Assembly: GCA_964508895.1 (NCBI GenBank)
Contig: CAZDWF010000002.1
Coordinates: 2,645-66,644, forward strand
Source: an uncultured Bacteroidales bacterium
Lineage (GTDB): Bacteria; Bacteroidota; Bacteroidia; Bacteroidales; B18-G4
DNA: 64,000 nt
Direction of reading: 5' to 3'
The notes below the pieces were generated by a model. The model had not been told where the DNA came from, did no database searches, and worked only from the letters and a program-made list of their open reading frames with translations. Position 1 is the first letter of the stretch, and every line of letters starts with the position of its first letter. The position numbers and the translations under genes are program-made. Below are positions 1 to 33,123 of the stretch, piece by piece.

Positions 1-1
1 T

Positions 2-3000: not shown

Positions 3001-3784
3001 TAAAATTCTTGACAGGATTCCCATAACAGATACTGCCTATGGTGCTGATTACAGGGAGCGTACAAAGAAATTCAGACAGTATATAATTGGTGAGTATAAA
3101 AAAGTTGCTGCTGAATATGGAGATGTAAAATATTACAGGAGAAACATCCTGAAGAATTATGTTTTTCGTGGTGCTATACTGGAATGGTATCTTAGGGTGA
3201 AACTCAGGATGGAAGACAATTATAAATTATATGATAAATATACTCCCAAATCAGGATTGATAACAGATATGGGTTGTGGTTATGGGTTTATATCTTATAT
3301 GTTATCATTTTTGTCAGCAGAAAGACAAATCATCGGTATTGATTATGACGAAGAAAAGATAGAAGTTGCAAATAATGCCTTCTATAAAAATGATAAACTG
3401 GACTTTATACATGATGATATTACCAAAGCAGAAATTAAAGCATCCGATGCATTTCTTTTTGGTGATGTACTGCATTACATACCGGAGAATGACCAAAAGC
3501 TATTGCTTGATAAATGCATCAGCAAATTAAATGTCGGGGGTGTGATAATCATAAGAGAGGGTGATAAAGATCTCGAAAAAGAACACAAAGGAACACGTCT
3601 CTCAGAATACCTTTCTACAAGAATTGTTAAGTTTAACAAAACCAACGAGACAGATAAGCTGTATTTTCTAAACCGGGAAATGATAAAAGGAATTGCTGAT
3701 GAGTATGGCTTGGAAATGATAGTTGTTGACAGTGCGAAGCTAACATCAAATATAATGATGGTACTGAGGAAGAAAGAATTATGA
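2..3784 (+). CDS. Trifunctional MMPL-family exporter / PlsC-type lysophospholipid acyltransferase / class I SAM methyltransferase (5' end runs off the window)
   Basis: Frame is open to the window start. Two blocks of hydrophobic helices (about aa 240-400 and 640-800) fit MMPL/RND-like exporters. PlsC motifs GNHESHVD (HX4D) and FPEGTRS are present, as is SAM-MTase motif I DMGCGYGF. This fusion is known in Bacteroidota flexirubin/aryl-polyene-type loci. Confidence 0.8.
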   Translation, partial: LSVVSLLLISGYLASLIRFEEDVFRMVPQGKDSRDLEIAFKNTSLMDKLVVRFYQKDTHAEPNPGLLIDAADDFVNELNRSFDSLYIKSILYKLDASDMDEVYDEFYHNLPLYLEESDYKRLDTITLEENIVAKLQDNYNLLISPAGISMKKFLVKDPLGIAGSALKKLETLQLDDNYSLYKDCIITHDKKNLLVLISSANPSSETLLNSELIDGVTRISDSINARYTEAGVEHFGAVAVAVANAKQVKRDVLLTVGAAFLLVLLIMTLYFRQKRMLLVLIIPVVFGGSIALAVIFLAKTMISAIALGVGSVLVGISIDYALHFFTHYQNTGSAEKVLKDVSSPVIYSALTTAAAFFCLSFVNSYALRDMGWFAGLSVIFAALASLLILPQLVKAKKKKTLLPFISSFASYPFHKKKYLKWLIITLAIVSLFFFRHVEFEGDLEDMSYMTEELITAQENLNAISTASLRTIYLINMADDLESAIQMNEQLGNTISGLKEKGLVQSYVLPSELLISDSLRIVKIERWEKFWKSRKEKVVKTIKSEAGKYKFRDGTFDQFATLLSVEGESWDQNEKMIIDRFLSDYVTSNDSLTLIVTPVKVNLEDKEAVHKVLNGVSDIVIIDKQYIARKFVNTLKEDFNLLVIISLIVVFIILLIVFGRFELAAITYIPMLISWVITLGVMAMFGIKFTIFNIIISTFIFGLGIDYSIFITRGMMQKLKFNEDNLNSYKTSIFLSALTTISGIGVLIFAKHPALQSMAVVSIIGILTVLLVAYTIQPGLYNWLMYTKGRKRFAPIVLMDFVFSMVCIIVFVSGILIVTVLGVLLLFLTPLSKKKARYLYHYLIKLACWFQLYVELNIKKTFVGFTKEKFRTPSVIIGNHESHVDILLILLLYPKVIVLTNEKVHKRIYGALVKMADFYPITSDGIDATIGKIEERVKEGYSILVFPEGTRSYDTTIHRFHRGAFYIAEKLKLDILPVIFHGIGDCLKRSELFLRGGHMTVKILDRIPITDTAYGADYRERTKKFRQYIIGEYKKVAAEYGDVKYYRRNILKNYVFRGAILEWYLRVKLRMEDNYKLYDKYTPKSGLITDMGCGYGFISYMLSFLSAERQIIGIDYDEEKIEVANNAFYKNDKLDFIHDDITKAEIKASDAFLFGDVLHYIPENDQKLLLDKCISKLNVGGVIIIREGDKDLEKEHKGTRLSEYLSTRIVKFNKTNETDKLYFLNREMIKGIADEYGLEMIVVDSAKLTSNIMMVLRKKEL

Positions 3785-5274
3785 AATATGATTTTATAAT
3801 CATCGGAAGTGGACTGGGAGGCCTGCTAACCGGCCTCATCCTGAGTAAGGAAGGCTACAATGTTTGTGTCCTGGAAAAGAATGCAAGGATTGGAGGTTGC
3901 CTGCAGTCATTTAAACGCAATGGAGCAATTTTCAATACAGGATTAAATTATACAGAATCGCTTCTCGACGGACAAATTATGAACCAGTACTTTGAGTATT
4001 TTGGTATCAGGGATAAGCTCAATCTGAAGCGGATGGATATAGATGCTTTTGAGAAAATCACATTTAATGATGACCCAATAGAGTATAAATATGCCCAGGG
4101 AACAGAACGGTTTATTGAAAACATGGTAGAGCAATTCCCACAGGAAAGGAGAAATATTGTCAATTACATGAATGAGCTTGAAAAACTATCAAACTCATTT
4201 CCATTATATAATCTGGATATTAAAACTGAGTCAAGCATACTGAATGAATATTATTATAAAGACACAGCTGCTTTTATAAATTCTATTACGACTAACCAAA
4301 AACTCAGGAATGTCCTTGTTGGAACCAGTCCTCTATATGCCGGAGTGCCTGATAAAACACCTTTGTATATTCATGGCCTGATAGTCTATTCTTTTATTCA
4401 AAGTGCCTGGCGAGTGGTTGATGGTAGTTCTTTAATGGCTGAAACCATTGCTGATGAGATTGTTTCTAATGGTGGCACAGTAATGAAAAGTTCAGAAGTA
4501 ATTTCAATAAATACAGATAATAGAAAGGTTAATGCAATTGAATTAAATAGTGGTGAAAAAATTGAGGCCAGGACTTTTATTTCGGCTATCCATCCTGAAG
4601 TTACTTTAAACTTGATCGACGATAAAACTGCATACAATGCTTTTCGCAAAAGAATAAACTCCCTGGAGAATACTTCAGGAATGTTCACCTTATATGCAGT
4701 GATGAAAGATGGATCTTTCCCATATATTAATCATAACCATTATCATTATGCGGTGGATAATGTATGGGATGCTGTTTCATATACATCAAAAGAATGGCCT
4801 CCTTATTACCTTCTTTATACACCTGCTGTTTCTGGCAATTCTGAATATTCCAAAGCTGTAATTGTAATCACATATATGCATTATGATGAAGTAAAAAAGT
4901 GGAGCAACACAAAAGTTGGCAGGAGAGGCGAGGAGTATGAAGATTTTAAAAGAAGAAAAGCAGAACAACTTATTGGAAAAGTAGAAGAAAAATATTCAGG
5001 ATTTTCAGCATCCATTGATAAGTATTACTCATCTACGCCCTTGACATACCGTGATTATACAGCAACTATTGATGGTTCATCTTATGGAATTATGAAGGAT
5101 TACAGGAATCCGATGAAATCACTTATATTGCCAAAATCAAAGTTTCCGAATTTATATTTTACAGGGCAAAATTTGAATCTGCACGGGATTTTGGGTGTGA
5201 CAGTAAATGCTGTTATGACTTGCTCAGAGTTTCTGGGAATAGATAATCTTTTGAATAAAATAAAGAATTACTAA
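3781..5274 (+). CDS. NAD(P)/FAD-dependent oxidoreductase, phytoene-desaturase (CrtI)-like
   Basis: N-terminal dinucleotide-binding motif DFIIIGSGLGGL...LEKN. C-terminal FTGQN..HGILG pattern. ATGA overlap with the upstream gene. Confidence 0.75.
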   Translation: MKYDFIIIGSGLGGLLTGLILSKEGYNVCVLEKNARIGGCLQSFKRNGAIFNTGLNYTESLLDGQIMNQYFEYFGIRDKLNLKRMDIDAFEKITFNDDPIEYKYAQGTERFIENMVEQFPQERRNIVNYMNELEKLSNSFPLYNLDIKTESSILNEYYYKDTAAFINSITTNQKLRNVLVGTSPLYAGVPDKTPLYIHGLIVYSFIQSAWRVVDGSSLMAETIADEIVSNGGTVMKSSEVISINTDNRKVNAIELNSGEKIEARTFISAIHPEVTLNLIDDKTAYNAFRKRINSLENTSGMFTLYAVMKDGSFPYINHNHYHYAVDNVWDAVSYTSKEWPPYYLLYTPAVSGNSEYSKAVIVITYMHYDEVKKWSNTKVGRRGEEYEDFKRRKAEQLIGKVEEKYSGFSASIDKYYSSTPLTYRDYTATIDGSSYGIMKDYRNPMKSLILPKSKFPNLYFTGQNLNLHGILGVTVNAVMTCSEFLGIDNLLNKIKNY

Positions 5275-5283
5275 ATTCATAAT

Positions 5284-6789
5284 ATGATTAAGCAGGAAAG
5301 ATACGATGTGGTTATTGCCGGGAGCGGACTGGGTGGATTGTTAAGCGGACTTTTTTTAAGCAAGATAGGTTATCATGTATTGGTACTGGAAAAGAATAGT
5401 CAGATTGGGGGTTGTCTTCAGACTTTTGTAAGGAAAGGAAAAGTATTTGATACAGGCATGCACTATGTTGGTAGCATGGAGAAGGGCCAGTCCCTTAATA
5501 AGATCTTTAGCTATGCCGGAATTATAGATGATATCAAGATGCAAAGGCTCGACATGGACTGCTTTGATAAAATTATTTATGGCGGAAAGGAATATAAATA
5601 TGCTCAGGGCTTCGATAGATTTACTGATACAATGCATGAATATTTCCCTGATAATAAAGATGACGTTAGCAGGTATGTTGCAGAAATGCAGGAATTGGTA
5701 AGTTTTATTGATCTCTTCAATTTGAGACCGTTTACATCAGTGTCATATATTGACAACCCTAGTTCATTAATGCCTGTTGATGAAAAAATTAGTCAGGTGA
5801 CGTCAAATAAAACACTCCGGAGTGTTCTCTCAGGAATGAATGGGCTTTATGCCGGAGCTCCGGGTATAACCCCGTATTATGTACATGCCTTGATTAATAA
5901 TTTTTTTATAAATAGTGCCTGGCGACTCATAAATGGTGGTGAGCAAATTGCAGAATTATTGCGTGAAAAAATTGTTGAAAATGGAGGAGAAGTGATTGCA
6001 AAAAAAGAGGTGAAAGAATTTGTAGTCTCAAATGACCTGATAGATTATGTAGAGCTTGCAGATGAAACCAGGGTATTTGGGAAATATTTTATATCAAATA
6101 TCCATCCTGCTAAAACCTTATCAATGATTAAGGGTAATAGCATACGTAAAGCTTATATTAATAGAATAAATAGCCTTGAGAATACTATAGGGATGTTTGT
6201 TGTTTATGCTGATCTTAAAGAAAACAGCTTTCCTAATATTAATCATAATGTCTACTACTTTAATGGAGAAGATGTTTGGGGCACCCGTGATTATTATAAG
6301 AAGATGTGGCCTGATGGCTTTATGATGTATACTCCGAATCGGGGAAATATGGGTGACCATGCCCAGACTGCTATTGTAATCACATATATGAAATATGAAG
6401 AATTAGCAAAATGGGAAAATACCTGGATCGAACATAGAGGAGATGATTACCGTGAATTTAAAAAAATAAAAGCTGAGAAACTCATAAAACTGGTTGATAG
6501 TGTTTATCCGGGATTTAAAAAATCGATTCATAAGTATTATACTTCAACACCATTAACATATCGCGATTATACAGCCACACAGGATGGTTCATGTTATGGC
6601 ATTATGAAGAGTTGCAAGAATTTTCCATCTACAATAATTCATCCAAAAACGCGCATTAATAATTTGTTTTTCACAGGACAAAACATGAGTTTGCATGGAA
6701 TTCTTGGAGTTAGCTTTGGTTCTGTAGTAACTTGCATGTCGATACCGGGAAATGAAAATCTGATCACTAATATTAATAATGTACATTAA
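5284..6789 (+). CDS. NAD(P)/FAD-dependent oxidoreductase, CrtI-like (paralogue of 3781-5274)
   Basis: DVVIAGSGLGGL Rossmann motif. Shares YTSTPLTYRDYTAT and FTGQN motifs with the upstream paralogue. Confidence 0.75.
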   Translation: MIKQERYDVVIAGSGLGGLLSGLFLSKIGYHVLVLEKNSQIGGCLQTFVRKGKVFDTGMHYVGSMEKGQSLNKIFSYAGIIDDIKMQRLDMDCFDKIIYGGKEYKYAQGFDRFTDTMHEYFPDNKDDVSRYVAEMQELVSFIDLFNLRPFTSVSYIDNPSSLMPVDEKISQVTSNKTLRSVLSGMNGLYAGAPGITPYYVHALINNFFINSAWRLINGGEQIAELLREKIVENGGEVIAKKEVKEFVVSNDLIDYVELADETRVFGKYFISNIHPAKTLSMIKGNSIRKAYINRINSLENTIGMFVVYADLKENSFPNINHNVYYFNGEDVWGTRDYYKKMWPDGFMMYTPNRGNMGDHAQTAIVITYMKYEELAKWENTWIEHRGDDYREFKKIKAEKLIKLVDSVYPGFKKSIHKYYTSTPLTYRDYTATQDGSCYGIMKSCKNFPSTIIHPKTRINNLFFTGQNMSLHGILGVSFGSVVTCMSIPGNENLITNINNVH

Positions 6790-8458
6790 AGTTGTATTAA
6801 AAATATTAAAGTATTTCTTTATTGGGTTATTTGTAATCCTTTTAGGCTTGTTTGTTTACTTCCTGATAGCTGTTCAGCTTTCAGAGCCTGAGATTGAAAA
6901 TACTACAGCTGTGCAAATTCCTGTACAAAATATTTCAGAAGATTTTATTATATGCGGAAAAGGTCGTTTGCAACATAATGAATACGGCTTATGGGAGCTC
7001 TACCTTGAAGGCAATGCTTTTGAATTAGGTGTTATAAATGGAAAACTAAGCAAAGACCTGATTAATAAACAGGAAGTAGCTTTTGTGAATCAAATCAATA
7101 AAATGATACCTTCAAAGAGCTATTTGAAATTCCTGAAATATTTTATCGCCTTTTTTAACCGTAAGCTGGATAATAATATCGATGAGCAATATTTACAGGA
7201 GATCTATGGTGTTTCATTGTCTGCATCTGACAAATTTGAGTTCATTGGCAATAATTACCGTAGATTATTAAACTATCATGGAGCCCATGATATAGGCCAT
7301 GCATTGCAAAACATGAATCTTGTTGGTTGTACTGCGTTTGCTTTCTGGGGTGGAAAATCCAAAGATGGCAGGATGATGATCGGCAGAAATTTTGACTTCC
7401 ATGCCGGGGATGAGTTTGCTGAAAATAAGATAGTTTGCTTTATAAAACCTGATAATGGTTACAGATTTATGATGATCACCTGGGGTGGTATGATAGGTGT
7501 TGTTTCAGGAATGAATATGCAGGGACTTACGGTTACACTGAATGCTGCTAAATCAGATATGCCATTGAATACGGCTACTCCTGTATCAATTCTTGCCAGA
7601 GAAATATTGCAATATGCCTCAAATATTGAAGAAGCTTATGAAATTGCTCAGTCAAGGAATACATTTGTCTCCGAAGCATTTTTGGTTAGCTCTGTAAAAG
7701 ATGATAAAGCAGTTGTAATTGAGAAATCCCCTGATGTTACTTCCATTTATGAATCCGACACCAATTATCTTATACTGACAAACCATTTTCAAAGTGATGC
7801 ATTTAAAAACTCGGAGCTAACAAGGGAAAATATTGAAATGACCTCCACCATGTACAGGTATAATAGGGTTAAGCAACTTATGGAGCTATACCCTGAACTG
7901 GATGTTTCGTCTGTAGCAGAAATATTAAGAGATCAAAAAAGTGTTGATGATAAAAATATTGGAATGGGAAATGAAAAGGCTATTAATCAACTTATTGCTC
8001 ATCATTCAGTTATCTTTAAACCGGAAGAAAAGCTTGTATGGATTAATACAGGCCCCTGGCAAATGGGTGAGTACGTATGCTATGATCTGGATAGTGTATT
8101 TGTAAAATTTCCTGCATTACATGATACGGCAATACTATTTGAGAAAGATCTAACCTTGCCTTCAGACAGTTTCTATTACAGTAGTAATTATCAGGATTTT
8201 ATAAGGTATAAAAAATATTACGGATTGATTCAGGATAAGATAAGGAAGGAGCAGGATACTGTTTTCAATGATGCAGAGATGATAAAAGCAAATCCACTGT
8301 TCTTTGCAACCTACGATGCCCTTGGTAATTGGTATGATTATAAAAATGATTATAGAAAAGCAGAGTACTATTACCTGCAAGCTCTTAAGAGAGATATTCC
8401 GACAATATATGAAAGAGATGCAATTAAAGATAAACTTGAAAAGGTGAAAGATGAGTAA
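6779..8458 (+). CDS. C45-family peptidase / acyl-CoA:6-APA acyltransferase-like Ntn hydrolase with N-terminal TM helix
   Basis: Hydrophobic N-terminus. Core motifs GCTAFAFWG, GRNFDF and GMNMQGL are typical of the C45/IAT family. Helical TPR-like C-terminus. Start overlaps the upstream gene. Confidence 0.6.
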   Translation: MYIKVVLKILKYFFIGLFVILLGLFVYFLIAVQLSEPEIENTTAVQIPVQNISEDFIICGKGRLQHNEYGLWELYLEGNAFELGVINGKLSKDLINKQEVAFVNQINKMIPSKSYLKFLKYFIAFFNRKLDNNIDEQYLQEIYGVSLSASDKFEFIGNNYRRLLNYHGAHDIGHALQNMNLVGCTAFAFWGGKSKDGRMMIGRNFDFHAGDEFAENKIVCFIKPDNGYRFMMITWGGMIGVVSGMNMQGLTVTLNAAKSDMPLNTATPVSILAREILQYASNIEEAYEIAQSRNTFVSEAFLVSSVKDDKAVVIEKSPDVTSIYESDTNYLILTNHFQSDAFKNSELTRENIEMTSTMYRYNRVKQLMELYPELDVSSVAEILRDQKSVDDKNIGMGNEKAINQLIAHHSVIFKPEEKLVWINTGPWQMGEYVCYDLDSVFVKFPALHDTAILFEKDLTLPSDSFYYSSNYQDFIRYKKYYGLIQDKIRKEQDTVFNDAEMIKANPLFFATYDALGNWYDYKNDYRKAEYYYLQALKRDIPTIYERDAIKDKLEKVKDE

Positions 8459-9746
8459 TATGTTTCCAAAAATTGAATATCAGAGTCGTGATAACATCTC
8501 TGATTATCAAAATGAAAGATTGCCGGAGTTTTTAAGCTATTTGCAAAATAATTCAACATTTTATAAAAAGCATTTCAGGAAATATAAAGTTGATATTTTG
8601 AAAATAAAAAGTATTTCAGATCTTTCTATAATTCCTGCTACTACTAAAGATGATCTGTATAAGTTTAATCAGGATTTTATTTGCGTGCCAGCTGAAAAAA
8701 TCATAGATATTGTTACAACTTCAGGAACACTGGGTGATCCGGTTACTTTTGTGATGACAGACAAAGACCTTGATAGGCTAGCATACAATGAATACGTTTC
8801 CTTCTTATGTGCCGGAGGCAGTAAAGATGATATTTACCAGCTGATGACTACTATCGACAGAAGGTTTATGGCAGGATTGGCATATTTCCTGGGCGCAAGG
8901 AAACTTGGTGCAGGTATTGTTCGCGTAGGAAATGGCATGCCTGAGCTGCAATGGGATACTATAAACAGAGTAAAACCAAATTCATTTATTACAGTTCCTT
9001 CATTTTTACTTAAGCTGATTGAATGGGCAGAGGAAAATGGAATAGATTATAAATCTGCTTCTGTTGAAAAGGCCATTTGTATTGGTGAACCCTTGAGAAA
9101 CCCGGATTTTTCGTTGACAACACTTGGAGAAAAGATCAAAGAAAAATGGGATATTAAACTATACTCAACTTATGCATCAACTGAGATGGCGACCGCATTC
9201 ACTGAATGTGAATATGCATGTGGTGGTCACCATCATCCTGAATTGATTATCGTTGAATTTCTTGATGAAAATGACAATCCTGTTAAAGAAGGAGAGGCCG
9301 GTGAAGTTACAATCACTACTTTGGGTGTGGAAGGTATACCTTTATTAAGGTTTAAAACAGGAGATATTTGCTATCACTTTAACGACCCATGTAAATGTGG
9401 TAGAACAACAATGAGGTTAGGACCTGTCATAGGACGTATGAAACAAATGATCAAGTTTAAAGGTACTACTCTTTACCCCCCTGCATTGTACGATATATTG
9501 GATAATATTCCGGAAATCCGCCATTATGTTGTGGAAGTTTATACTAATGATATAGGAACTGATGAGATAATGATCCGTATTGATACTAAAGAAATGAGTG
9601 CTGATTTTGAAAAAAGACTTAAGGACCATTTCAGGGCAAAATTGCGCGTGGCACCAGTAATCAGCTTTGAAAGTCAGAAAGATATTGAAAAGATAAAGTT
9701 CCCTGAAGAAAATAGAAAAGCTATTAGCTTTATTGATAGAAGGTAG
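8451..9746 (+). CDS. Phenylacetate-CoA ligase-like adenylate-forming enzyme (PaaK / coenzyme F390 synthetase family), copy A
   Basis: Motifs TTSGTLGDP, YASTE, FKTGD and KFKGT. About 430 aa. Start overlaps the stop of the C45-like gene. Confidence 0.8.
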   Translation: MSNMFPKIEYQSRDNISDYQNERLPEFLSYLQNNSTFYKKHFRKYKVDILKIKSISDLSIIPATTKDDLYKFNQDFICVPAEKIIDIVTTSGTLGDPVTFVMTDKDLDRLAYNEYVSFLCAGGSKDDIYQLMTTIDRRFMAGLAYFLGARKLGAGIVRVGNGMPELQWDTINRVKPNSFITVPSFLLKLIEWAEENGIDYKSASVEKAICIGEPLRNPDFSLTTLGEKIKEKWDIKLYSTYASTEMATAFTECEYACGGHHHPELIIVEFLDENDNPVKEGEAGEVTITTLGVEGIPLLRFKTGDICYHFNDPCKCGRTTMRLGPVIGRMKQMIKFKGTTLYPPALYDILDNIPEIRHYVVEVYTNDIGTDEIMIRIDTKEMSADFEKRLKDHFRAKLRVAPVISFESQKDIEKIKFPEENRKAISFIDRR

Positions 9747-9785
9747 TGTTTAGCCATTAGTGTTTAGTAATATTATTGATTATAT
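9744..9785. repeat. Heptad array TAGNNNN
   Basis: Units: tagtgtt tagccat tagtgtt tagtaat attattg attatat. The first TAG is the ligase stop codon. Confidence 0.75.
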
Positions 9786-9905
9786 TTGATCTGGTATTTT
9801 GTTGATCATTTATTAATTCTATAAGCACTCAATAATAATAGATTATTAGCTCACTGCCAATACCCCAATAACTATCTGTTAAAATCGAACATAAACATCA
9901 ATATT

Positions 9906-10529
9906 ATGAAAAAATTAATTCTAATTCTCGCTTTGGTACTTTATTTTGCACCAACAGCTTTCAGTCAAAATGTGACAAATATATTTAACTTAAGCAGCTG
10001 TACCTGGTACGGACTGGATTTTTCAAAGGTCAAACTGATAGGTTCTGAAGGATTTAATGATACCCAGGCCATCAAAGATCAGTTTTTTAGTTCCTGGAAT
10101 TACCTGGTACTTAATGAACCTGAAAAATATAACATCGGAAAAGCTTTTAATAAACAAAATGTAGATTATTACCTCGATGTTATTAATGAAAGGAACAAGT
10201 TGCCTGAGATAGATGATCTGGTTACAGCTGACAATAATTACAGTATTTCTGAGGATGAAGTGAAATCAATAATTAGTGAGTATAGATCTGAGGGTAAATC
10301 AGGTATGGGAATAGTTTTCATTATGGAATCCTTTAATAAATATATAGAGGAAGGGACCATGTGGGTTACTTTTTTTGATATAGAAAGCAGAAAGGTTTTA
10401 TTTGCTGATAAACTTTCAGGAAAAGCAGGTGGCTTTGGTTTCAGGAATTATTGGGCTAAAACATATTATAATGTAATAAAGGAAGTTGAGAAAAAGAAAT
10501 ACAAACAGTGGAGAAAGCAATTTGAGTAA
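9906..10529 (+). CDS. Secreted hypothetical protein, copy A
   Basis: Signal peptide MKKLILILALVLYFAPTAFSQ. No recognisable catalytic motif. Confidence 0.6.
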   Translation: MKKLILILALVLYFAPTAFSQNVTNIFNLSSCTWYGLDFSKVKLIGSEGFNDTQAIKDQFFSSWNYLVLNEPEKYNIGKAFNKQNVDYYLDVINERNKLPEIDDLVTADNNYSISEDEVKSIISEYRSEGKSGMGIVFIMESFNKYIEEGTMWVTFFDIESRKVLFADKLSGKAGGFGFRNYWAKTYYNVIKEVEKKKYKQWRKQFE

Positions 10530-10534
10530 AAAAG

Positions 10535-10570
10535 AAAAGGCTGTCTTGAAATAAATCAGGACAGCCTTTT
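10535..10570. terminator. Bidirectional hairpin between convergent genes
   Basis: Sequence aaaaggctgtc-ttgaaataaatca-ggacagcctttt. A/T runs flank it on both sides. Confidence 0.6.
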
Positions 10571-10582
10571 TATTACTATTCT

Positions 10583-11030
10583 TTAATATTTGTCAGGATA
10601 GGGTATTCGGAGTAAAAATCCAAAACTAACAATGATCCCTGATAGATCCAATTCTGACCTGTTGGCTGTCCACCCATTGTACGTGTCAACATCCATTGAA
10701 CCCATCATGTAGTCAACAGAGAAAACAAAATTAGCGGATTTCCCAACAGATATAGTAGGGCCAAATGTATAACCAAGAAAACTGTCAAACTTCACGTCAT
10801 TGTCATCAGTAAAACCACCATCTGGTGCCCAGGTGAAGCTTCCGAACATAGGGCCTCCATGCATGCCAATTGTAAAAACAGTAGCAGGTCTGAAACGTAC
10901 AGCTATATCTCCTCTGTATGTGGGCCCGTAAAAGGCATTGTTATATAGGAATCCACCGCCTCCTGTTATCTCAATAAATACAATTGAAGTGTTGATAGAA
11001 ACACCAAAATTCATGTGTGGTGTATATGAA
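10583..11030 (-). pseudogene. 5'-truncated copy of the beta-rich secreted protein gene (13199-13846), cut at the duplication junction
   Basis: Translation is identical to the C-terminal 143 aa of 13199-13846. Identity ends at the junction near 11031. No signal peptide or native start remains. Confidence 0.8.
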
Positions 11031-11066
11031 GAGATGCAATTAAAGATAAACTTGAAAAGGTGAAAG

Positions 11067-12362
11067 ATGAGTAATATGTTTCCAAAAATTGAATATCAGA
11101 GTCGTGATAACATCTCTGATTATCAAAATGAAAGATTGCCGGAGTTTTTAAGCTATTTGCAAAATAATTCAACATTTTATAAAAAGCATTTCAGGAAATA
11201 TAAAGTTGATATTTTGAAAATAAAAAGTATTTCAGATCTTTCTATAATTCCTGCTACTACTAAAGATGATCTGTATAAGTTTAATCAGGATTTTATTTGC
11301 GTGCCAGCTGAAAAAATCATAGATATTGTTACAACTTCAGGAACACTGGGTGATCCGGTTACTTTTGTGATGACAGACAAAGACCTTGATAGGCTAGCAT
11401 ACAATGAATACGTTTCCTTCTTATGTGCCGGAGGCAGTAAAGATGATATTTACCAGCTGATGACTACTATCGACAGAAGGTTTATGGCAGGATTGGCATA
11501 TTTCCTGGGCGCAAGGAAACTTGGTGCAGGTATTGTTCGCGTAGGAAATGGCATGCCTGAGCTGCAATGGGATACTATAAACAGAGTAAAACCAAATTCA
11601 TTTATTACAGTTCCTTCATTTTTACTTAAGCTGATTGAATGGGCAGAGGAAAATGGAATAGATTATAAATCTGCTTCTGTTGAAAAGGCCATTTGTATTG
11701 GTGAACCCTTGAGAAACCCGGATTTTTCGTTGACAACACTTGGAGAAAAGATCAAAGAAAAATGGGATATTAAACTATACTCAACTTATGCATCAACTGA
11801 GATGGCGACCGCATTCACTGAATGTGAATATGCATGTGGTGGTCACCATCATCCTGAATTGATTATCGTTGAATTTCTTGATGAAAATGACAATCCTGTT
11901 AAAGAAGGAGAGGCCGGTGAAGTTACAATCACTACTTTGGGTGTGGAAGGTATACCTTTATTAAGGTTTAAAACAGGAGATATTTGCTATCACTTTAACG
12001 ACCCATGTAAATGTGGTAGAACAACAATGAGGTTAGGACCTGTCATAGGACGTATGAAACAAATGATCAAGTTTAAAGGTACTACTCTTTACCCCCCTGC
12101 ATTGTACGATATATTGGATAATATTCCGGAAATCCGCCATTATGTTGTGGAAGTTTATACTAATGATATAGGAACTGATGAGATAATGATCCGTATTGAT
12201 ACTAAAGAAATGAGTGCTGATTTTGAAAAAAGACTTAAGGACCATTTCAGGGCAAAATTGCGCGTGGCACCAGTAATCAGCTTTGAAAGTCAGAAAGATA
12301 TTGAAAAGATAAAGTTCCCTGAAGAAAATAGAAAAGCTATTAGCTTTATTGATAGAAGGTAG
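11067..12362 (+). CDS. Phenylacetate-CoA ligase-like adenylate-forming enzyme, copy B (identical to 8451-9746)
   Basis: 431 aa, residue-identical to copy A. Offset is exactly 2616 nt. Confidence 0.8.
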   Translation: MSNMFPKIEYQSRDNISDYQNERLPEFLSYLQNNSTFYKKHFRKYKVDILKIKSISDLSIIPATTKDDLYKFNQDFICVPAEKIIDIVTTSGTLGDPVTFVMTDKDLDRLAYNEYVSFLCAGGSKDDIYQLMTTIDRRFMAGLAYFLGARKLGAGIVRVGNGMPELQWDTINRVKPNSFITVPSFLLKLIEWAEENGIDYKSASVEKAICIGEPLRNPDFSLTTLGEKIKEKWDIKLYSTYASTEMATAFTECEYACGGHHHPELIIVEFLDENDNPVKEGEAGEVTITTLGVEGIPLLRFKTGDICYHFNDPCKCGRTTMRLGPVIGRMKQMIKFKGTTLYPPALYDILDNIPEIRHYVVEVYTNDIGTDEIMIRIDTKEMSADFEKRLKDHFRAKLRVAPVISFESQKDIEKIKFPEENRKAISFIDRR

Positions 12363-12401
12363 TGTTTAGCCATTAGTGTTTAGTAATATTATTGATTATA
12401 T
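12360..12401. repeat. Heptad array TAGNNNN (duplicate copy)
   Basis: Identical to 9744-9785 and lies inside duplication copy B. Confidence 0.75.
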
Positions 12402-12521
12402 TTGATCTGGTATTTTGTTGATCATTTATTAATTCTATAAGCACTCAATAATAATAGATTATTAGCTCACTGCCAATACCCCAATAACTATCTGTTAAAA
12501 TCGAACATAAACATCAATATT

Positions 12522-13145
12522 ATGAAAAAATTAATTCTAATTCTCGCTTTGGTACTTTATTTTGCACCAACAGCTTTCAGTCAAAATGTGACAAATATAT
12601 TTAACTTAAGCAGCTGTACCTGGTACGGACTGGATTTTTCAAAGGTCAAACTGATAGGTTCTGAAGGATTTAATGATACCCAGGCCATCAAAGATCAGTT
12701 TTTTAGTTCCTGGAATTACCTGGTACTTAATGAACCTGAAAAATATAACATCGGAAAAGCTTTTAATAAACAAAATGTAGATTATTACCTCGATGTTATT
12801 AATGAAAGGAACAAGTTGCCTGAGATAGATGATCTGGTTACAGCTGACAATAATTACAGTATTTCTGAGGATGAAGTGAAATCAATAATTAGTGAGTATA
12901 GATCTGAGGGTAAATCAGGTATGGGAATAGTTTTCATTATGGAATCCTTTAATAAATATATAGAGGAAGGGACCATGTGGGTTACTTTTTTTGATATAGA
13001 AAGCAGAAAGGTTTTATTTGCTGATAAACTTTCAGGAAAAGCAGGTGGCTTTGGTTTCAGGAATTATTGGGCTAAAACATATTATAATGTAATAAAGGAA
13101 GTTGAGAAAAAGAAATACAAACAGTGGAGAAAGCAATTTGAGTAA
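12522..13145 (+). CDS. Secreted hypothetical protein, copy B (identical to 9906-10529)
   Basis: 207 aa, residue-identical to copy A. Confidence 0.6.
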   Translation: MKKLILILALVLYFAPTAFSQNVTNIFNLSSCTWYGLDFSKVKLIGSEGFNDTQAIKDQFFSSWNYLVLNEPEKYNIGKAFNKQNVDYYLDVINERNKLPEIDDLVTADNNYSISEDEVKSIISEYRSEGKSGMGIVFIMESFNKYIEEGTMWVTFFDIESRKVLFADKLSGKAGGFGFRNYWAKTYYNVIKEVEKKKYKQWRKQFE

Positions 13146-13150
13146 AAAAG

Positions 13151-13186
13151 AAAAGGCTGTCTTGAAATAAATCAGGACAGCCTTTT
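13151..13186. terminator. Bidirectional hairpin (duplicate copy)
   Basis: Identical to 10535-10570. Confidence 0.6.
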
Positions 13187-13198
13187 TATTACTATTCT

Positions 13199-13846
13199 TT
13201 AATATTTGTCAGGATAGGGTATTCGGAGTAAAAATCCAAAACTAACAATGATCCCTGATAGATCCAATTCTGACCTGTTGGCTGTCCACCCATTGTACGT
13301 GTCAACATCCATTGAACCCATCATGTAGTCAACAGAGAAAACAAAATTAGCGGATTTCCCAACAGATATAGTAGGGCCAAATGTATAACCAAGAAAACTG
13401 TCAAACTTCACGTCATTGTCATCAGTAAAACCACCATCTGGTGCCCAGGTGAAGCTTCCGAACATAGGGCCTCCATGCATGCCAATTGTAAAAACAGTAG
13501 CAGGTCTGAAACGTACAGCTATATCTCCTCTGTATGTGGGCCCGTAAAAGGCATTGTTATATAGGAATCCACCGCCTCCTGTTATCTCAATAAATACAAT
13601 TGAAGTGTTGATAGAAACACCAAAATTCATGTGTGGTGTATATGAAGATCCTCCGCTTATCTCATCATATCTTATAGACCAGAAGGTTCCGCTTCCTGTA
13701 TTTGATACCTGGAACCCATCCATGTTAATACTAACCAGGAAGCTGGCCGGACTTACATTCATGATGAAACTAACAGGAGATTGAGCTGAAACAGAATTGA
13801 CAAAAAGAAAGGAACAAATGATAAAAGTGGCAAATAACTTTTTCAT
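13199..13846 (-). CDS. Secreted beta-strand-rich protein, possible outer-membrane beta-barrel
   Basis: Likely start is the ATG at 13846, giving signal peptide MKKLFATFIICSFLFVNSVSAQ. Gly/aromatic-rich alternating pattern. The ORF-track start at 13915 lies in a poly-A/heptad tract. Confidence 0.55.
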   Translation of the reverse strand: MKKLFATFIICSFLFVNSVSAQSPVSFIMNVSPASFLVSINMDGFQVSNTGSGTFWSIRYDEISGGSSYTPHMNFGVSINTSIVFIEITGGGGFLYNNAFYGPTYRGDIAVRFRPATVFTIGMHGGPMFGSFTWAPDGGFTDDNDVKFDSFLGYTFGPTISVGKSANFVFSVDYMMGSMDVDTYNGWTANRSELDLSGIIVSFGFLLRIPYPDKY

Positions 13847-13892
13847 ATCAGATAAATTTGGATTAACAAGTTTTTTATAAAAATAAAAAAAA

Positions 13893-13927
13893 AAGATACA
13901 AGATGCAAGATACAAGATGCAGTTGCA
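13893..13927. repeat. Heptad array AAGATRC
   Basis: Units: aagatac aagatgc aagatac aagatgc agttgca. Lies in a divergent promoter region. Confidence 0.75.
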
Positions 13928-14038
13928 AGTAAATGTTTATATTTTTTATTAAATTTACTGATAGCAAATTCTCCAATTATTTTTACTATTTTTAACACAA
14001 TGGAAGTTGTGAATATTAATTAAATAAAACTTGGAATT

Positions 14039-14647
14039 ATGAAGAAGCTTATAGTTGTATTACTGTGTGTTATTGCATTTGTGTTTAGTTCAAACGCTCA
14101 AAAGGTCAAAGTTAAACAGGGAGATCTCAACTTTTTAAAAGGTCAAACAGAACTACATGTGAAGTTTGTTTACGATAATTTGGGAGTGGGAAAGTTTGAC
14201 AAAGAAGAGGACTATGTTAATAAAAAAGTTAGGGATTATAATAAGAAAGAACCAGGAAGAGGTGATGCCTGGCATAAAGCATGGATTGCTGACAGGGACG
14301 AGCATTATGAAGTAAAATTTGAAGAATTAATGAATGAATACCTTGATAAGATCAACCTCCAGATTGGTAATCATTATACTGATGCAAAGTATACTTTGAT
14401 TTTCGATACTTATTTTATAGAGCCGGGATATAATATTGGTATAAGCAGGAGAAATGCATATATATCTGCTAAAGCCATTTTTGTGGAAACAGCAAACCCT
14501 GATAAAATTTTATGTATCATCGATTTGATCAAGGCTCCCGGAAGAACATACGGCGGTAGTGATTATGACACAGGAGTTCGTATTGGTGAAGCCTATGCAA
14601 AATGTGGTAAAACTTTTGCAGGTTTTATTTTGAAAAAGCTTAAGTAG
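14039..14647 (+). CDS. Secreted hypothetical protein
   Basis: Signal peptide MKKLIVVLLCVIAFVFSSNAQ. No diagnostic motif. Confidence 0.55.
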   Translation: MKKLIVVLLCVIAFVFSSNAQKVKVKQGDLNFLKGQTELHVKFVYDNLGVGKFDKEEDYVNKKVRDYNKKEPGRGDAWHKAWIADRDEHYEVKFEELMNEYLDKINLQIGNHYTDAKYTLIFDTYFIEPGYNIGISRRNAYISAKAIFVETANPDKILCIIDLIKAPGRTYGGSDYDTGVRIGEAYAKCGKTFAGFILKKLK

Positions 14648-14693
14648 TATTTTACTAACTTTGCCACTTCTATTATTTTAAATAGAGGTATTC

Positions 14694-15821
14694 ATGACAG
14701 ATATTGAATTAAAACCTTATTCAGAACAGGAAGTTCCTGAAATAATGAAACGTATTGTTTCGGATGAAAACTTTCCTGTATTGATTCCCTATGCTTTTCC
14801 CGACAGAGAAGTATCTGAAATTGCAGATATTTTACTAAGCTGTAAATCAACAAGAGATTTCCAGAGGAGGTTTATGGCTAATATGATACGATCAATTGTA
14901 CAAAGAAGCTCAACGGATTATACAACCAGCGGAACTGAAAATATTGATCCTGAAAAATCATATCTATATATAGGAAACCACAGGGATATTATTCTCGATT
15001 CAGGAATGTTACAGGTTTTGCTTATTGACCTTGATCTTGAAACCAGCGAAATGTCGATCGGGAAAAACCTGATGGTTAACGATCTTATTTCAGACCTGGG
15101 TAAAGCAAATAAAATGATCCCTGTTGAAAGGAGCGGAACAGCCAGGGAGCTACTGCGATCGTCTTCAGTGCTTTCTAATTATATCAGGAAGTCGGTTACA
15201 GAAAAAGGTATGTCGGTATGGATTGCTCAGAGAAATGGAAGGGCTAAAGACGGAAATGATAGAACTGAAAGTGCCCTTTTAAAAATGCTTAATATGAGTG
15301 GCAAGGGCAGCATTGTTGATGATTTCAAAGACCTGAATATTGTCCCTGTAAGCACATCTTATGAGATAGAACCATGCGATGTTCTTAAGGTTCAGGAAAT
15401 TTATGAGACAACCAAGGGGCAGTATGTGAAAAAACCAGGGGAAGATACTAAGAGTATGGCTACCGGATTAATCCAGCCCAAAGGCAAAATCCATATGAGA
15501 ATTGGTAATGTTATTAATTATAAACTATCTGATATTGATAATAAGAAAAACATCAATGAGAGCTTTAATGCATTATCAGGAATAATTGATAAAGAAATAT
15601 ACAGGAACTATAAGCTATGGCCTTCCAATTATGTTGCATATGATATGCTATTTGGTGAGAGATTTAAAGATCAGTATACTTCTGAGGAAAAATCTTCTTT
15701 CCTGGAATATTATAATGCCAGCCTTGGCAAACTTATTGGAGAAAGAGAAAAGCTATCGGATCACTTCCTGAAAATGTACTCTTTTCCTGTTATCAATAAA
15801 ATTGAATCAGGACTTATTTAA
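14694..15821 (+). CDS. PlsC-family glycerolipid acyltransferase
   Basis: HX4D acyltransferase motif GNHRDIILD and a downstream AQRNGRAKDG block. Confidence 0.65.
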   Translation: MTDIELKPYSEQEVPEIMKRIVSDENFPVLIPYAFPDREVSEIADILLSCKSTRDFQRRFMANMIRSIVQRSSTDYTTSGTENIDPEKSYLYIGNHRDIILDSGMLQVLLIDLDLETSEMSIGKNLMVNDLISDLGKANKMIPVERSGTARELLRSSSVLSNYIRKSVTEKGMSVWIAQRNGRAKDGNDRTESALLKMLNMSGKGSIVDDFKDLNIVPVSTSYEIEPCDVLKVQEIYETTKGQYVKKPGEDTKSMATGLIQPKGKIHMRIGNVINYKLSDIDNKKNINESFNALSGIIDKEIYRNYKLWPSNYVAYDMLFGERFKDQYTSEEKSSFLEYYNASLGKLIGEREKLSDHFLKMYSFPVINKIESGLI

Positions 15822-17289
15822 CAATTTTACTCTTATCGATTTTGGGCTCTGCCTTTTTATACTTATCCCAAATACTGAAAATTGATTGTGCTATTTCAGT
15901 ATTGTTGATGTATGCATTACGGTTGTAATCAGTTTCATCAGCATAACGCAGGAATAATTCACTGCCTGGTCCTTTTGCAAAAAATGGAATTAAATGATTG
16001 GTATGGTTTCTACTGAGAAACTGATGACCAGGAAGCTTCCCTTTTCCATTATTTTCTACCTGGTAATTTTTTGGAAGATCATCTCCGGGATAATCTGGTC
16101 CGACAAGGTAACCGGTTTCATGATCTCCTGTCACGATAAGCAATGTTTCATCCCAGCTGCTGTTTTCTTCTATCCATTTAATGACTGCTTTAACGGAATT
16201 GTTAAAATCATCCTCTTCTTCAATAACCCTTTCAATCATATTTCCATGTCCTGCCCAATCTACAGCACCCCCTTCTATCATTACAAGAAATCCATTCTTG
16301 TTGTTGCCTAATACGTTTAAAGCAGCTTGAGTCATATCTTTCAGTGTAGGTACATTTTTGTTGAAAGCAAGTTCGAAAGGCATGGTCTCATCCGTCCTTA
16401 AGTTCATTCGTCTCAATCCTTGCAGTGTAGAATGTGCATTAGGTATTCCTATTAATCTTTTAGGAGCTTTTCCTTCAGCCAGGTTTACAAATTCAATGCT
16501 ATCAGAAATTAATACCCATGGATCAGGATTGCCATCACCATCAATATCCTGCACAATATTATTTTCGTTTATTGTTGTGGAATCAAATTGAGCCACTCCA
16601 TTTTTTAAATTGTTCCACGTACCTATTCCTCCGACATGATCTGCCTCTATAATAGTATCTGAATGTTCTGCATTATCATTATAATAGGGATGTCCACATC
16701 CCATAATCACACTAAATTTACTGTCGATGATCATTTCATTTGCTATTTGAGAGTAATTATAACGACTGATATTATGAGCTCCCAAACATGCTGGAGTAGC
16801 GTGAGAAAGAGGAACAGAGCTTACAACTCCAACAGATTTTCCCAACTCAATTGCACGGTCTGCAATGCTTCTTAAATAGGATGAATCAATATCTACTCCA
16901 ACAGCTTTCATTGCAGCTTTTTTTCCTGTGTACATTGAAGTTGCAGCAGCAGCAGATCCTGTAAATCCCTGTTTTACATATTCCTGATCAGTCCATGCAG
17001 GTTCAGAGATATATCCTGTATGATAATTCTTAAGATCATTACTTCCTTGAATTTTAGAAGTAATTGCAGGGTATGTACTCATAAACAAATTCACATCAAA
17101 TTTTTGATATGCTTGAGATTCAGCTACCCCATCCATGAAATAATTAGTTGCCAGAATATGATTTTCACCACAGCCATCACTGATCATCAGGATTATATTT
17201 TTAGGATAAGTTTGAGTTTTTTCAGCATATTTTTCGCAGGATGCCAGAAAACTTAAAGCTAGTATAAGAAACAGAAATTTTTTAATCAT
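15814..17289 (-). CDS. Alkaline phosphatase family lipoprotein
   Basis: Lipoprotein signal LALSFLASC. PhoA-family blocks MISDGCG, TGSAAAATSMYTG, VTGDHETG and GHQF..NHTN. Confidence 0.8.
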   Translation of the reverse strand: MIKKFLFLILALSFLASCEKYAEKTQTYPKNIILMISDGCGENHILATNYFMDGVAESQAYQKFDVNLFMSTYPAITSKIQGSNDLKNYHTGYISEPAWTDQEYVKQGFTGSAAAATSMYTGKKAAMKAVGVDIDSSYLRSIADRAIELGKSVGVVSSVPLSHATPACLGAHNISRYNYSQIANEMIIDSKFSVIMGCGHPYYNDNAEHSDTIIEADHVGGIGTWNNLKNGVAQFDSTTINENNIVQDIDGDGNPDPWVLISDSIEFVNLAEGKAPKRLIGIPNAHSTLQGLRRMNLRTDETMPFELAFNKNVPTLKDMTQAALNVLGNNKNGFLVMIEGGAVDWAGHGNMIERVIEEEDDFNNSVKAVIKWIEENSSWDETLLIVTGDHETGYLVGPDYPGDDLPKNYQVENNGKGKLPGHQFLSRNHTNHLIPFFAKGPGSELFLRYADETDYNRNAYINNTEIAQSIFSIWDKYKKAEPKIDKSKIVK

Positions 17290-17345
17290 AGTTCCGGGGT
17301 TTTTGTAAAATTACATATTTCTAATGACCAAATATTCAAATATTT

Positions 17346-18101
17346 CTAAAACAGATAAGGAATAAATACTTTCCGCTTTCCAGGATAGTCAGGAAATCTC
17401 TCTTTATACCACTTATGATGACTTATAGCCCTTGGAATTAGATTGGCTGCAGTCCATACTGCAAAGGAAACACCTGCAATATTCCACATCATAATCGCAT
17501 AGCCAACCCATTCAATGATCTCTCCAAAATGGTTAGGACAGGATACTTTGTTAAAAAGACCACCGTAAGGAATTTGATATTTGCAAGGATCACTTTTCCG
17601 GAGGTTTATAAGTTTGCTGTCCGCACTAATATTGATTGCAGCTCCAATAAAAAATACAATTGCACCAGCAATAAATGGAATGGAGTAGATCCAACTATCC
17701 GCATAATCAGCAAAATTACCCAGGAAGTAACCCAGTATAAAGCCATTTACAAGATTGAAGAAGATAGCCAGCATCACTATTAAAATTGGCATTTTCTTGC
17801 CTCTGGTTTTAAGCCTGAAGGGGAAAATAAATACTCTGTGAATATAGTGTAGTGTATAGATTCCATAAAATATCCAGGATAGAAGTGCTTTTTCTGCATT
17901 TCCGGTAAAAAAGAAAATACCTGGAACTATCAAAGCAGGAAGCTCCATAATAAACCATCCCATCTTATTATTGATCATCGGACCCCAGCCTGACTTTGTA
18001 TGCCGACCATAAGGAGCAGGAATTTTGAGTAAAAGCAGGAAAGTAAGTATACCTATACCAATCCAGATCCAGATAATTATATGAAATGTACTTTGTGTCA
18101 T
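17346..18101 (-). CDS. 3-oxo-5-alpha-steroid 4-dehydrogenase (steroid 5-alpha-reductase/DUF1295) family membrane protein
   Basis: Polytopic hydrophobic protein with C-terminal family signature HHKWYKERFPDYPGKRKVFIPYLF. Start moved to the ATG at 18101, because the longer ORF runs into the inverted repeat of the neighbouring cassette. Confidence 0.65.
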   Translation of the reverse strand: MTQSTFHIIIWIWIGIGILTFLLLLKIPAPYGRHTKSGWGPMINNKMGWFIMELPALIVPGIFFFTGNAEKALLSWIFYGIYTLHYIHRVFIFPFRLKTRGKKMPILIVMLAIFFNLVNGFILGYFLGNFADYADSWIYSIPFIAGAIVFFIGAAINISADSKLINLRKSDPCKYQIPYGGLFNKVSCPNHFGEIIEWVGYAIMMWNIAGVSFAVWTAANLIPRAISHHKWYKERFPDYPGKRKVFIPYLF

Positions 18102-18149
18102 TCGTGGAATTTTATTCAAATGTAAGAAAAAGTGATGTGATGAAGTTTT

Positions 18150-18186
18150 TAACCGCAATAGACGCAAAGGAAGGCGCAATGGACGC
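18150..18186. repeat. Left 37-bp inverted repeat of the GxxExxY cassette
   Basis: The sequence taaccgcaatagacgcaaaggaaggcgcaatggacgc matches the reverse complement of 18578-18614 at 36/37 positions. Confidence 0.85.
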
Positions 18187-18563
18187 TATAGATTTAGTGC
18201 AATACGTCGAACGCCTTGTTTCATAAGTGCAACGTTAAAATTGATAAGTAATCCAAGTTTACAATTTGAGAGTTTCAGATATGTTAAGACTTGAGCTAGA
18301 TGTACATCATTAATAGCCTCAACTGATTTTACTTCGATTACTACTTTATGTTCAACTAATAAATCAACTCTATAGCCAATTTCCATTACTACATTTTCAA
18401 AAACCAAGGGCAATGACTTTTGTTTCTCAACATAGAGGTTTGATTGCTTTAATTTATAAAATAGGCATTCCTCATAAGAGCTTTCAAGTAATCCTGGTCC
18501 TAAAGCTTTATGAATTTCAAGAGCGGCGAAGTATGTTATTCTGGATATTTCATTTTCATTCAT
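18186..18563 (-). CDS. GxxExxY protein (PD-(D/E)XK-fold family typical of 23S rRNA intervening sequences)
   Basis: Signature GPGLLESSYEECL (GxxExxY). About 125 aa from the ATG at 18563. The track start at 18584 is a TTG inside the flanking repeat. Confidence 0.8.
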   Translation of the reverse strand: MNENEISRITYFAALEIHKALGPGLLESSYEECLFYKLKQSNLYVEKQKSLPLVFENVVMEIGYRVDLLVEHKVVIEVKSVEAINDVHLAQVLTYLKLSNCKLGLLINFNVALMKQGVRRIALNL

Positions 18564-18577
18564 ATTATGAACTCTTT

Positions 18578-18614
18578 GCGTCAATTGCGCCTTCCTTTGC
18601 GTCTATTGCGGTTA
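18578..18614. repeat. Right 37-bp inverted repeat of the GxxExxY cassette
   Basis: Sequence gcgtcaattgcgccttcctttgcgtctattgcggtta. Confidence 0.85.
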
Positions 18615-18790
18615 AGTATTTTATCATTACTTTATTATTTTAGTATTAATGTGTTCCGGTAGAACCTGAATCATTTTTAGTATATTATTATAACGTATAA
18701 ATAAACAAGCACTTAAGAAGAAAATTCAGTTATTGATTATTGTGGAATAATGATAGTTTTGTTAGCAATAGGATCAGATCATTGCACGAA

Positions 18791-18825
18791 TCTGTTCACT
18801 ATTCACCATTCACTATTCACTTTTT
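18791..18825. repeat. Heptad array ACNATTC
   Basis: Units: tctgttc actattc accattc actattc acttttt. Lies upstream of gatE. Confidence 0.7.
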
Positions 18826-18886
18826 TAGTACATTTGGCACTTCTAATTTTCAATCTTGTTTTACACAACGATTAGTCATTTATTTC

Positions 18887-20845: not shown

Positions 20846-20865
20846 AAAATATAAAACGGATTATC

Positions 20866-29448: not shown

Positions 29449-29458
29449 GATGCTTTTT

Positions 29459-30892: not shown

Positions 30893-31042
30893 TAAAATAT
30901 TAGATTCAGGTAAAATTGAATTTACTAAGATAGTTAAAAGAAAGTTGCAAGCCGCAAGTAGTCAGCTTTGCAATCTGAAGCCTTGGTGAAGGATGGCTTG
31001 CATTTTGTTTATTGCTAATTGATTATTATCTTTATTCAAATC

Positions 31043-33088: not shown

Positions 33089-33105
33089 AATACATTCATA
33101 ATATC

Positions 33106-33123
33106 ACCCCTTCGGGGTTTTGG
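33106..33123 (+). terminator. Short GC hairpin with UUCG loop and T-run
   Basis: The sequence acccc-ttcg-ggggt followed by tttgg lies 18 nt after the stop of 31043-33088. Confidence 0.5.

Follow-up and report, generated by a model that had tools for sequence, protein, structure and literature searches.

A 2,616-bp head-to-tail tandem duplication with a microhomology junction, carrying the predicted ligase gene flxY of an uncultured Bacteroidales bacterium

In Escherichia coli, tandem amplifications that arise spontaneously or under stress have junctions with short microhomology (a few to about 10 nt, in some cases broken by mismatches) and are explained by template switching (PMC1428787). Junctions that show short microhomology and no flanking repeat are placed in the class formed by non-homologous recombination (bioRxiv 10.64898/2026.05.22.727201). 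On the side of gene function, synthesis of the flexirubin polyene in Chitinophaga pinensis is started by a 4-coumarate-CoA ligase, FlxY (Cpin_1877; PMC3992019). Here we describe a 2,616-bp tandem duplication that carries a gene predicted to encode FlxY. It lies in a 64,000-nt stretch from an uncultured Bacteroidales bacterium (contig CAZDWF010000002.1 of GenBank assembly GCA_964508895.1, positions 2,645 to 66,644 of the forward strand), which is called the window below, its first letter being position 1. An earlier note on this DNA, made by a model from the letters alone, had reported the repeat and offered two readings of it, a very recent event or an assembly artefact. We consider it likely that the duplication is real and very recent, that it was mediated by microhomology independently of RecA, and that it is polymorphic between populations.

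Window positions 8417-11032 recur at 11033-13648 as a direct head-to-tail repeat with a single novel junction, and direct comparison of the two copies, termed A and B, gave 0 mismatches in 2,616 positions. The same pair was returned independently by the repeat finder, at a spacing of 2616 (family D2). Identity continues for 4 nt beyond the left edge, where AAGA at 8413-8416 equals the letters at 11029-11032 and 13645-13648, and for 0 nt beyond the right edge, where 11033 is G and 13649 is T. A third copy of the unit was not found in the window, which holds no N characters, and an exact repeat of 2.6 kb cannot have originated by chance. In Pfam and NCBIfam scans, the unit contained only flxY, a gene for a 207-aa secreted protein and a gene fragment, and no replication, mobilisation, integrase or transposase gene. 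Its left breakpoint lies 42-46 nt before the end of a gene for a C45-family acyltransferase, so that the last 42-46 nt of that gene are inside the unit, and its right breakpoint cuts a gene for a beta-rich secreted protein between 13648 and 13649. The earlier note's 2,616-bp head-to-tail duplication without differences was therefore borne out by the base-by-base count, and the list of open reading frames (ORFs) confirmed that the three ORF pairs (431 aa, 207 aa and a 143-aa ORF) are identical. The second ligase gene and second 207-aa gene that it had named as consequences are likewise exact copies.

The left parental site ends in CAATATATGAAAGA and continues with GATGC, the right parental site ends in GTGTATATGAAGA and continues with TCCTCC, and the junction joins GTGTATATGAAGA to GATGC. 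The strings given earlier for these sites were correct in their letters, while the coordinates of the left one needed correction (8405-8425, not 8404-8424). The exact microhomology AAGA is embedded in a longer match of 10/11 positions, TATATGAA(A)GA, between the parental sites, for which one bulged A is needed. In a simulation that drew random breakpoint pairs, spaced as observed, in the window sequence, 2.3% of the pairs (p = 0.023) had 4 nt or more of exact microhomology, and about 9e-5 of them had ten junction-anchored matches with one 1-nt indel allowed. Border comparison, the repeat finder and domain scans detected no long flanking direct repeat, insertion sequence (IS) or rRNA copy at the unit borders; the repeat finder placed no repeat family other than D2 there, and the Pfam and NCBIfam scans revealed no transposase in or adjoining the unit. 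A homology of 4-10 nt is far too short for RecA-mediated homologous recombination, and the event would thus have been independent of RecA.

In the mechanism that we propose, a nascent 3′ end terminating in TATATGAAGA (right site, 13639-13648, in the beta-rich gene) would have mispaired during replication with TATATGAAAGA, located 2.6 kb behind at the left site (8406-8416, the last codons of the C45 gene), with one A bulged out. Synthesis restarted at the left site would then have run through the interval once more, and the crossover would lie inside AAGA. Such template switching, whether described as slipped misalignment or as illegitimate recombination, would yield the product L-X-X-R, in which X is the unit between its left (L) and right (R) flanks, with one flxY placed off-operon behind a terminator, a self-contained second 207-aa gene and a dead beta-rich fragment. 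Illegitimate recombination or slippage at a short homology had also been the reading of the earlier note, and AAGA within the 10/11 match supports it. No inverted repeat was found at the left breakpoint. At the right breakpoint, a 9-nt imperfect inverted repeat (ATATGAAGA / TCATCATAT, 89%, 13-nt loop, window 13640-13670) overlaps the breakpoint homology; it is probably a chance occurrence, as its folding energy is no better than that of shuffled sequence. The DNA folding energies of the left site, right site and junction gave z = 0.13, -0.31 and -0.06 against shuffled controls. Promotion of the switch by a hairpin or quasi-palindrome was rejected, given the lack of an inverted repeat on the left and only the 9-nt, 89% one on the right.

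The reality of the junction was judged from independent Logan assemblies of public runs, whose contigs were retrieved by exact-product look-up and represent essentially the same strain. In run SRR8146440, contig L004 equals window 11003-12992 at 100%, crosses the junction and starts exactly 30 nt before 11033, while contig L010 equals window 13619-17316 at 100% and starts exactly 30 nt before 13649. Both open with the common 30-mer ACCAAAATTCATGTGTGGTGTATATGAAGA and differ at base 31, where G leads to the unit start (L004) and T leads to the right flank (L010). As the shared 30 nt correspond to k-1 for k = 31, this is the de Bruijn fork expected at the end of a tandemly repeated unit. The fork indicates that 31-mers of the junction were present in the raw SRR8146440 reads and were assembled by software unrelated to that behind the deposited assembly; the support consists of contigs built from the reads, not of the reads themselves.

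A pure assembly artefact, in which contigs overlapping by 2.6 kb were concatenated or a scaffolder duplicated the segment and no molecule carried the junction, would account for the perfect identity of the copies, for the presence of the duplication in only one deposited contig and for the single-copy state of most other assemblies of the strain. However, a different assembler run on SRR8146440 produced both the junction contig and its fork partner, and a concatenation seam would be expected at arbitrary contig ends rather than on a 10/11 homology (p ~9e-5). We regard an artefact of this kind as extremely improbable, and of the two readings offered in the earlier note the real event is favoured by L004 and L010.

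The junction could also be real in the library while the chromosome is single-copy, if a 2,616-bp circle or recurrent library chimeras supplied it and the assembler threaded the graph loop once. For a circle, the short-read de Bruijn graph would be the same as for a tandem duplication, and the fork was seen in only one run. Nevertheless, the unit has no gene for its own replication, mobilisation, integration or transposition, its ends cut two ordinary genes, and apart from distant flxY homology it shows no similarity to plasmids or phages. A non-replicating circle would reach assembly-level abundance only if an existing tandem array shed it continuously, in which case the duplication would already have to be there, and in the case of chimeras the same junction would have to recur in order to pass the k-mer abundance filter in a low-coverage genome. 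Such a source of the junction is, in our judgement, very unlikely. An origin of the unit as a mobile element, composite transposon or plasmid was rejected on the absence of a mobility gene, of inverted repeats at the borders other than a chance-level one of 9 nt on the right, and of likeness to plasmids or phages beyond the same distant flxY homology.

Several points nevertheless weigh against a tandem duplication in the chromosome. Only SRR8146440 showed the junction, and the deposited contig may itself have been assembled from this run; a second assembler thus vouches for the junction, but a second sample perhaps does not. The left-flank contig of this run (L099) breaks off at 8397, leaving 15 nt to the breakpoint, and the link from L to X was not seen directly; coverage of the run looks low and patchy, with L004 ending within the 207-aa gene. 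In short reads, a tandem array looks the same as a single-copy chromosome accompanied by a 2,616-bp circle. The copy number of two is that of the assembled contig, and the variant may be carried by only a fraction of the cells. Lastly, the test of the 10/11 homology was framed only after the junction had been seen.

The single-copy arrangement was found in five other runs. Contigs of SRR24302411 and SRR24302418 (40.8 kb) and a contig of SRR31802803 pass both breakpoints as single copy; in SRR31802801 the two breakpoints are passed on two separate contigs, and in SRR31802805 the right breakpoint is passed as single copy. Aligned over up to 15.5 kb, these contigs have 0-1 mismatch to the window, and they show no fork; contig L098 of SRR24302418 has 0 mismatches over 15,274 nt to the window minus copy B and shares its allele at position 4996. 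An unbroken L-X-R contig is impossible in a de Bruijn assembly with appreciable junction coverage. Thus, the variant is present in the SRR8146440 population and in the deposited 77-kb contig, and at least five other runs lack it or hold it at low frequency. At a greater distance, 80 related Bacteroidota loci, with FlxY identities of no more than 76%, were all without a tandem flxY, and the best FlxY match among GTDB species representatives had 76% amino-acid identity. JGI metagenomes scanned for a 53-nt pattern taken from the start of the unit yielded 0 matches, and a literature search on four of the run accessions found no papers. Taken together, the absence of differences between the copies, the absence of differences from a single-copy genome over 15 kb and the lack of a tandem flxY in the 80 loci suggest a very recent, population-variable event.

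Position 4996 was the only single-nucleotide polymorphism among the runs over about 15 kb, and it replaces Ser406 by Pro406 (S406P) in a 497-aa phytoene-desaturase-like flavin adenine dinucleotide (FAD) enzyme. T (Ser406) is found in the window, SRR8146440 and SRR24302418, and C (Pro406) in SRR24302411, SRR31802801 and SRR31802803. T is also found in single-copy form, and it is on this background that the duplication arose.

The duplicated 431-aa acyl-CoA ligase is predicted to be FlxY, the flexirubin 4-coumarate-CoA ligase, from an equivalog-level match to NF053551 (719.4 bits, cutoff 520, profile positions 1-424/424). The operon at the window start consists of an MMPL-acyltransferase-methyltransferase fusion (8-3784), two FAD enzymes (3781-5274 and 5284-6789), the C45 gene and the ligase gene. 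Farther upstream, longer contigs of the same strain carry genes for an acyl carrier protein (PP-binding), two ketoacyl synthases, a polysaccharide deacetylase, LolA, a FabA/ApeI-like dehydratase and a GT2/DUF2062 protein. By its predicted functions, this gene set is an aryl-polyene/flexirubin-type cluster with the unit at its distal end, and the pigment it makes may not be a true flexirubin but an aryl polyene. The order FAD-C45-FlxY(-p207), p207 being the 207-aa protein, is kept among the closer ones of the 80 related loci. No Rfam family was detected in window 1-20000.

Two observations concern the upstream genes of this operon. The fusion ORF (8-3784, + strand, at least 1,215 aa) combines MMPL transporter, lysophospholipid-type acyltransferase and S-adenosylmethionine (SAM) methyltransferase domains, and its start differs between gene callers, with 1,215 aa and 1,280 aa in different runs. 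The two FAD oxidoreductases (497 aa and 501 aa; phytoene-desaturase-like; 3781-6789) share their domain set and a 61-nt stretch at 75% (family D7, 4842-4902 / 6354-6414), and the two adjacent genes are probably a further, ancient tandem pair inside the cluster.

The 207-aa protein had 379 homologs at E<=1e-3, none of them named or with a Pfam domain, and itself gave no Pfam, NCBIfam or PDB sequence match. Its AlphaFold (AF2) model had a predicted local distance difference test (pLDDT) score of 91.7, and a structural search with this model returned no PDB match at E<=1e-3. The weak fold matches, to PelC, LpoB, TolB-N and CsgG-like periplasmic lipoprotein folds, had template modelling (TM) scores of about 0.3 and are too weak to use. 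The 207-aa gene adjoins flxY in 14/80 related loci. We regard its product as a candidate accessory protein of aryl-polyene/flexirubin clusters.

The beta-rich protein belongs to no Pfam or NCBIfam family. In the cluster table, the 143-aa product of its truncated gene is recorded from just one NCBI contig (77,041 bp), which has to be the one that the window comes from, and exact-product look-up of the 143-aa ORF in the contig index gave no match. The earlier note had described this copy as 5′-truncated and devoid of its signal peptide, in agreement with the C-terminal 149 codons that are left. We infer that the truncated gene, having neither promoter nor signal peptide, is a dead fragment.

The positions of the unit, its junction and its genes are listed in the table.

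Features of the duplicated unit and its borders (window coordinates)
Feature	Position	Strand	Remarks
Duplication unit, copy A (2,616 bp)	8417..11032		0 mismatches to 11033-13648; family D2
Duplication unit, copy B (2,616 bp)	11033..13648		L004 (SRR8146440) = 11003-12992 at 100%, covering the junction and the start of copy B
Left parental homology TATATGAAAGA	8406..8416		Final 4 nt AAGA (8413-8416) = exact microhomology
Right parental homology TATATGAAGA	13639..13648		Final 4 nt AAGA (13645-13648) = exact microhomology; 13649 = first unique right-flank base
Novel junction, TATATGAAGA followed by GATG	11023..11036		Crossover within AAGA 11029-11032
Strings marking the joints			Junction GTGTATATGAAGAGATGCAATT; left parental joint CAATATATGAAAGAGATGC; right parental joint TATATGAAGATCCTCC
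C45-family autoproteolytic acyltransferase gene, intact	6779..8458	+	PF03417 AAT; NF040521 227 bits vs cutoff 85; C-terminal TPR
C45 3′ remnant in copy B	11033..11074	+	42 nt (46 with AAGA 11029-11032); identity with 8417-8458
flxY copy A, 431-aa acyl-CoA ligase	8451..9746	+	NF053551 FlxY equivalog (predicted); AMP-binding domains; overlaps C45 stop by 8 nt, operon context kept
flxY copy B, identical coding sequence	11067..12362	+	Preceded by 42-46 nt of C45 3′ end and, beyond the junction, by antisense of the truncated beta-rich gene
207-aa secreted protein gene, copy A	9906..10529	+	Conserved uncharacterised family; signal-peptide-like N-terminus MKKLILILALVLYFAPTAFSQ read from sequence
207-aa secreted protein gene, copy B	12522..13145	+	Own upstream intergenic region duplicated along
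Intact beta-rich secreted protein gene	13199..13846	-	215 aa from ATG 13846; mechanical ORF to TTG 13915 = 238 aa
5′-truncated beta-rich gene	10583..11032	-	C-terminal 149 codons + stop, no signal peptide; 143-aa ORF from internal ATG 11014
Terminator-like hairpin, copy A	10534..10571		16-bp stem, A-run and T-run flanks, so bidirectional; between convergent 207-aa and beta-rich genes
Terminator-like hairpin, copy B	13150..13187		Same hairpin
TATATTTG, match to Bacteroidota -7 consensus TAnnTTTG	9781..9788	+	Spacer upstream of 207-aa gene; copy B at 12397-12404

The two copies of flxY stand in different contexts. Copy A lies in its operon, and copy B retains its start context without the upstream operon, as had been noted before, only the 42-46 nt end of the C45 gene preceding it; the presence of this remnant had been recognised as well, its size being 42 nt (46 nt with the microhomology) and not the 44 nt given. 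The hairpin at 10534-10571 separates the transcription of copy A from flxY copy B, and no TAnnTTTG was found on the + strand from this terminator to the ATG of flxY copy B. The motif is not enriched across the window (75 found vs 78 expected), and our statements on promoters are at the level of motifs only. A sigma-70 promoter scan returned fewer sites than shuffles and is uninformative for Bacteroidota. With a strong terminator before it and no promoter motif, flxY copy B is probably poorly expressed, and the earlier suggestion of amplification under selection for ligase dosage is not supported. The dose most plausibly doubled would be that of the 207-aa gene, not of the ligase, because the 207-aa gene was duplicated together with the whole 159-nt spacer that separates it from flxY, including TATATTTG.

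Tandem duplications are unstable and are lost fast through homologous recombination between the copies. The consensus frequency of this one despite such loss suggests bottleneck drift or selection, and it is in this respect that an adaptive amplification has to be considered, in which an array, maybe of more than two copies collapsed to two in the assembly, was raised by a dose benefit of the 207-aa protein or of read-through flxY. Duplication of the 207-aa gene with its own spacer and a candidate -7 box would be in line with this. The terminator and the missing promoter motif before flxY copy B speak against it, as do the at least five other runs in which the same strain does without the duplication. 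We consider adaptive amplification unlikely, and its more specific form, habitat-specific selection for the 207-aa dose or for flxY read-through from the 207-aa promoter in an array of perhaps more than two copies, quite unlikely. If true, it would tie the 207-aa family to the export or assembly of aryl-polyene/flexirubin pigments. The prominence of the duplication in one sample may reflect drift, hitch-hiking or some selection.

Other parts of the window contain older paralog pairs. Two FG-GAP repeat proteins encoded at 28048-30892 (- strand) are both 477 aa long and share 47% identity, and two BNR/Ycf48-like beta-propeller proteins encoded at 31019-35339 (+ strand; 689 aa and 681 aa) share 46% identity. 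All four are secreted proteins that carry Por_Secre_tail and are sorted by the type IX secretion system (T9SS). These pairs are earlier, now diverged tandem duplications in the same genome, and show that tandem duplication has added genes repeatedly here.

Adjacent genes at 18740-22251 (+ strand; also on contig L019, 14958-18328) encode archaeal-type GatE (NF003107, 469 bits vs 456) and GatD (TIGR02153, 498 vs 324). GatDE, a Glu-tRNA(Gln) amidotransferase, is an archaeal enzyme, and the pair is unexpected in a Bacteroidales-type genome. In a related Bacteroidales metagenome-assembled genome, the same two genes, at amino-acid identities of 76% and 90%, lie downstream of flxY on a single contig (JAGYLD010000013.1), which argues against binning contamination. 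A literature search found no work substantively linking GatDE to Bacteroidetes. Between the cluster and this pair, a 132-aa GxxExxY gene (18186-18584, - strand; TIGR04256, 135 bits) is bracketed by 49-nt inverted repeats of 90% complementarity (18138-18186 / 18578-18626). Logan contigs from SRR24302411 and SRR31802801 (L001/L005 and L006) end at 18178, inside the left arm. This arrangement suggests either a genome-dispersed repeat family or an invertible or mobile cassette.

If the duplication is real and very recent, as we favour, the deposited contig is not wrongly stitched but holds a true structural variant. Annotation should then treat the second flxY and the second 207-aa gene as the outcome of a recent duplication and the 143-aa "protein" as a gene fragment, and should present none of them as a paralog with its own role. 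The duplication would provide a clean natural example of a microhomology-mediated tandem duplication, with the ancestral single-copy allele available at 100% identity in other samples. As such it is mildly useful for the study of structural polymorphism in uncultured populations and changes no concept.

The event is genuine but ordinary and adds one more case to a well-known class of structural mutation in bacteria, as comparison with the described systems illustrates. Like the lac and ampC amplifications of E. coli (PMC1428787; review PMC11721125), it is a head-to-tail repeat with one junction, at which the microhomology lies inside a longer imperfect match; long repeats or IS do not flank it, and its copies are identical since the event is recent. 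Unlike the E. coli lac amplicons, which are typically 7-40 kb, the unit here is 2.6 kb, and it occurs in an uncultured Bacteroidales metagenome population with no laboratory selection and no known selected phenotype. The older FG-GAP and BNR/Ycf48-like pairs of the window are also adjacent same-strand duplicates, but they consist of whole genes at 46-47% amino-acid identity, whereas the present duplication has zero divergence and cuts genes. In the position of flxY copy B behind another transcription unit, that of the 207-aa gene, the locus resembles promoter-capture duplications that activate silent genes (PMC6614815, PMC11111574); in contrast to these, a strong terminator intervenes and flxY already has an expressed copy, and activation by capture is not indicated. 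As for the ligase, whose 4-coumarate specificity is predicted from sequence, it resembles FlxY of Chitinophaga pinensis in scoring above the NF053551 cutoff and in its cluster with ketoacyl synthases, acyl carrier protein, FabA/ApeI-like dehydratase, LolA, MMPL exporter and GT2/DUF2062, and it differs in its Bacteroidales-type host.

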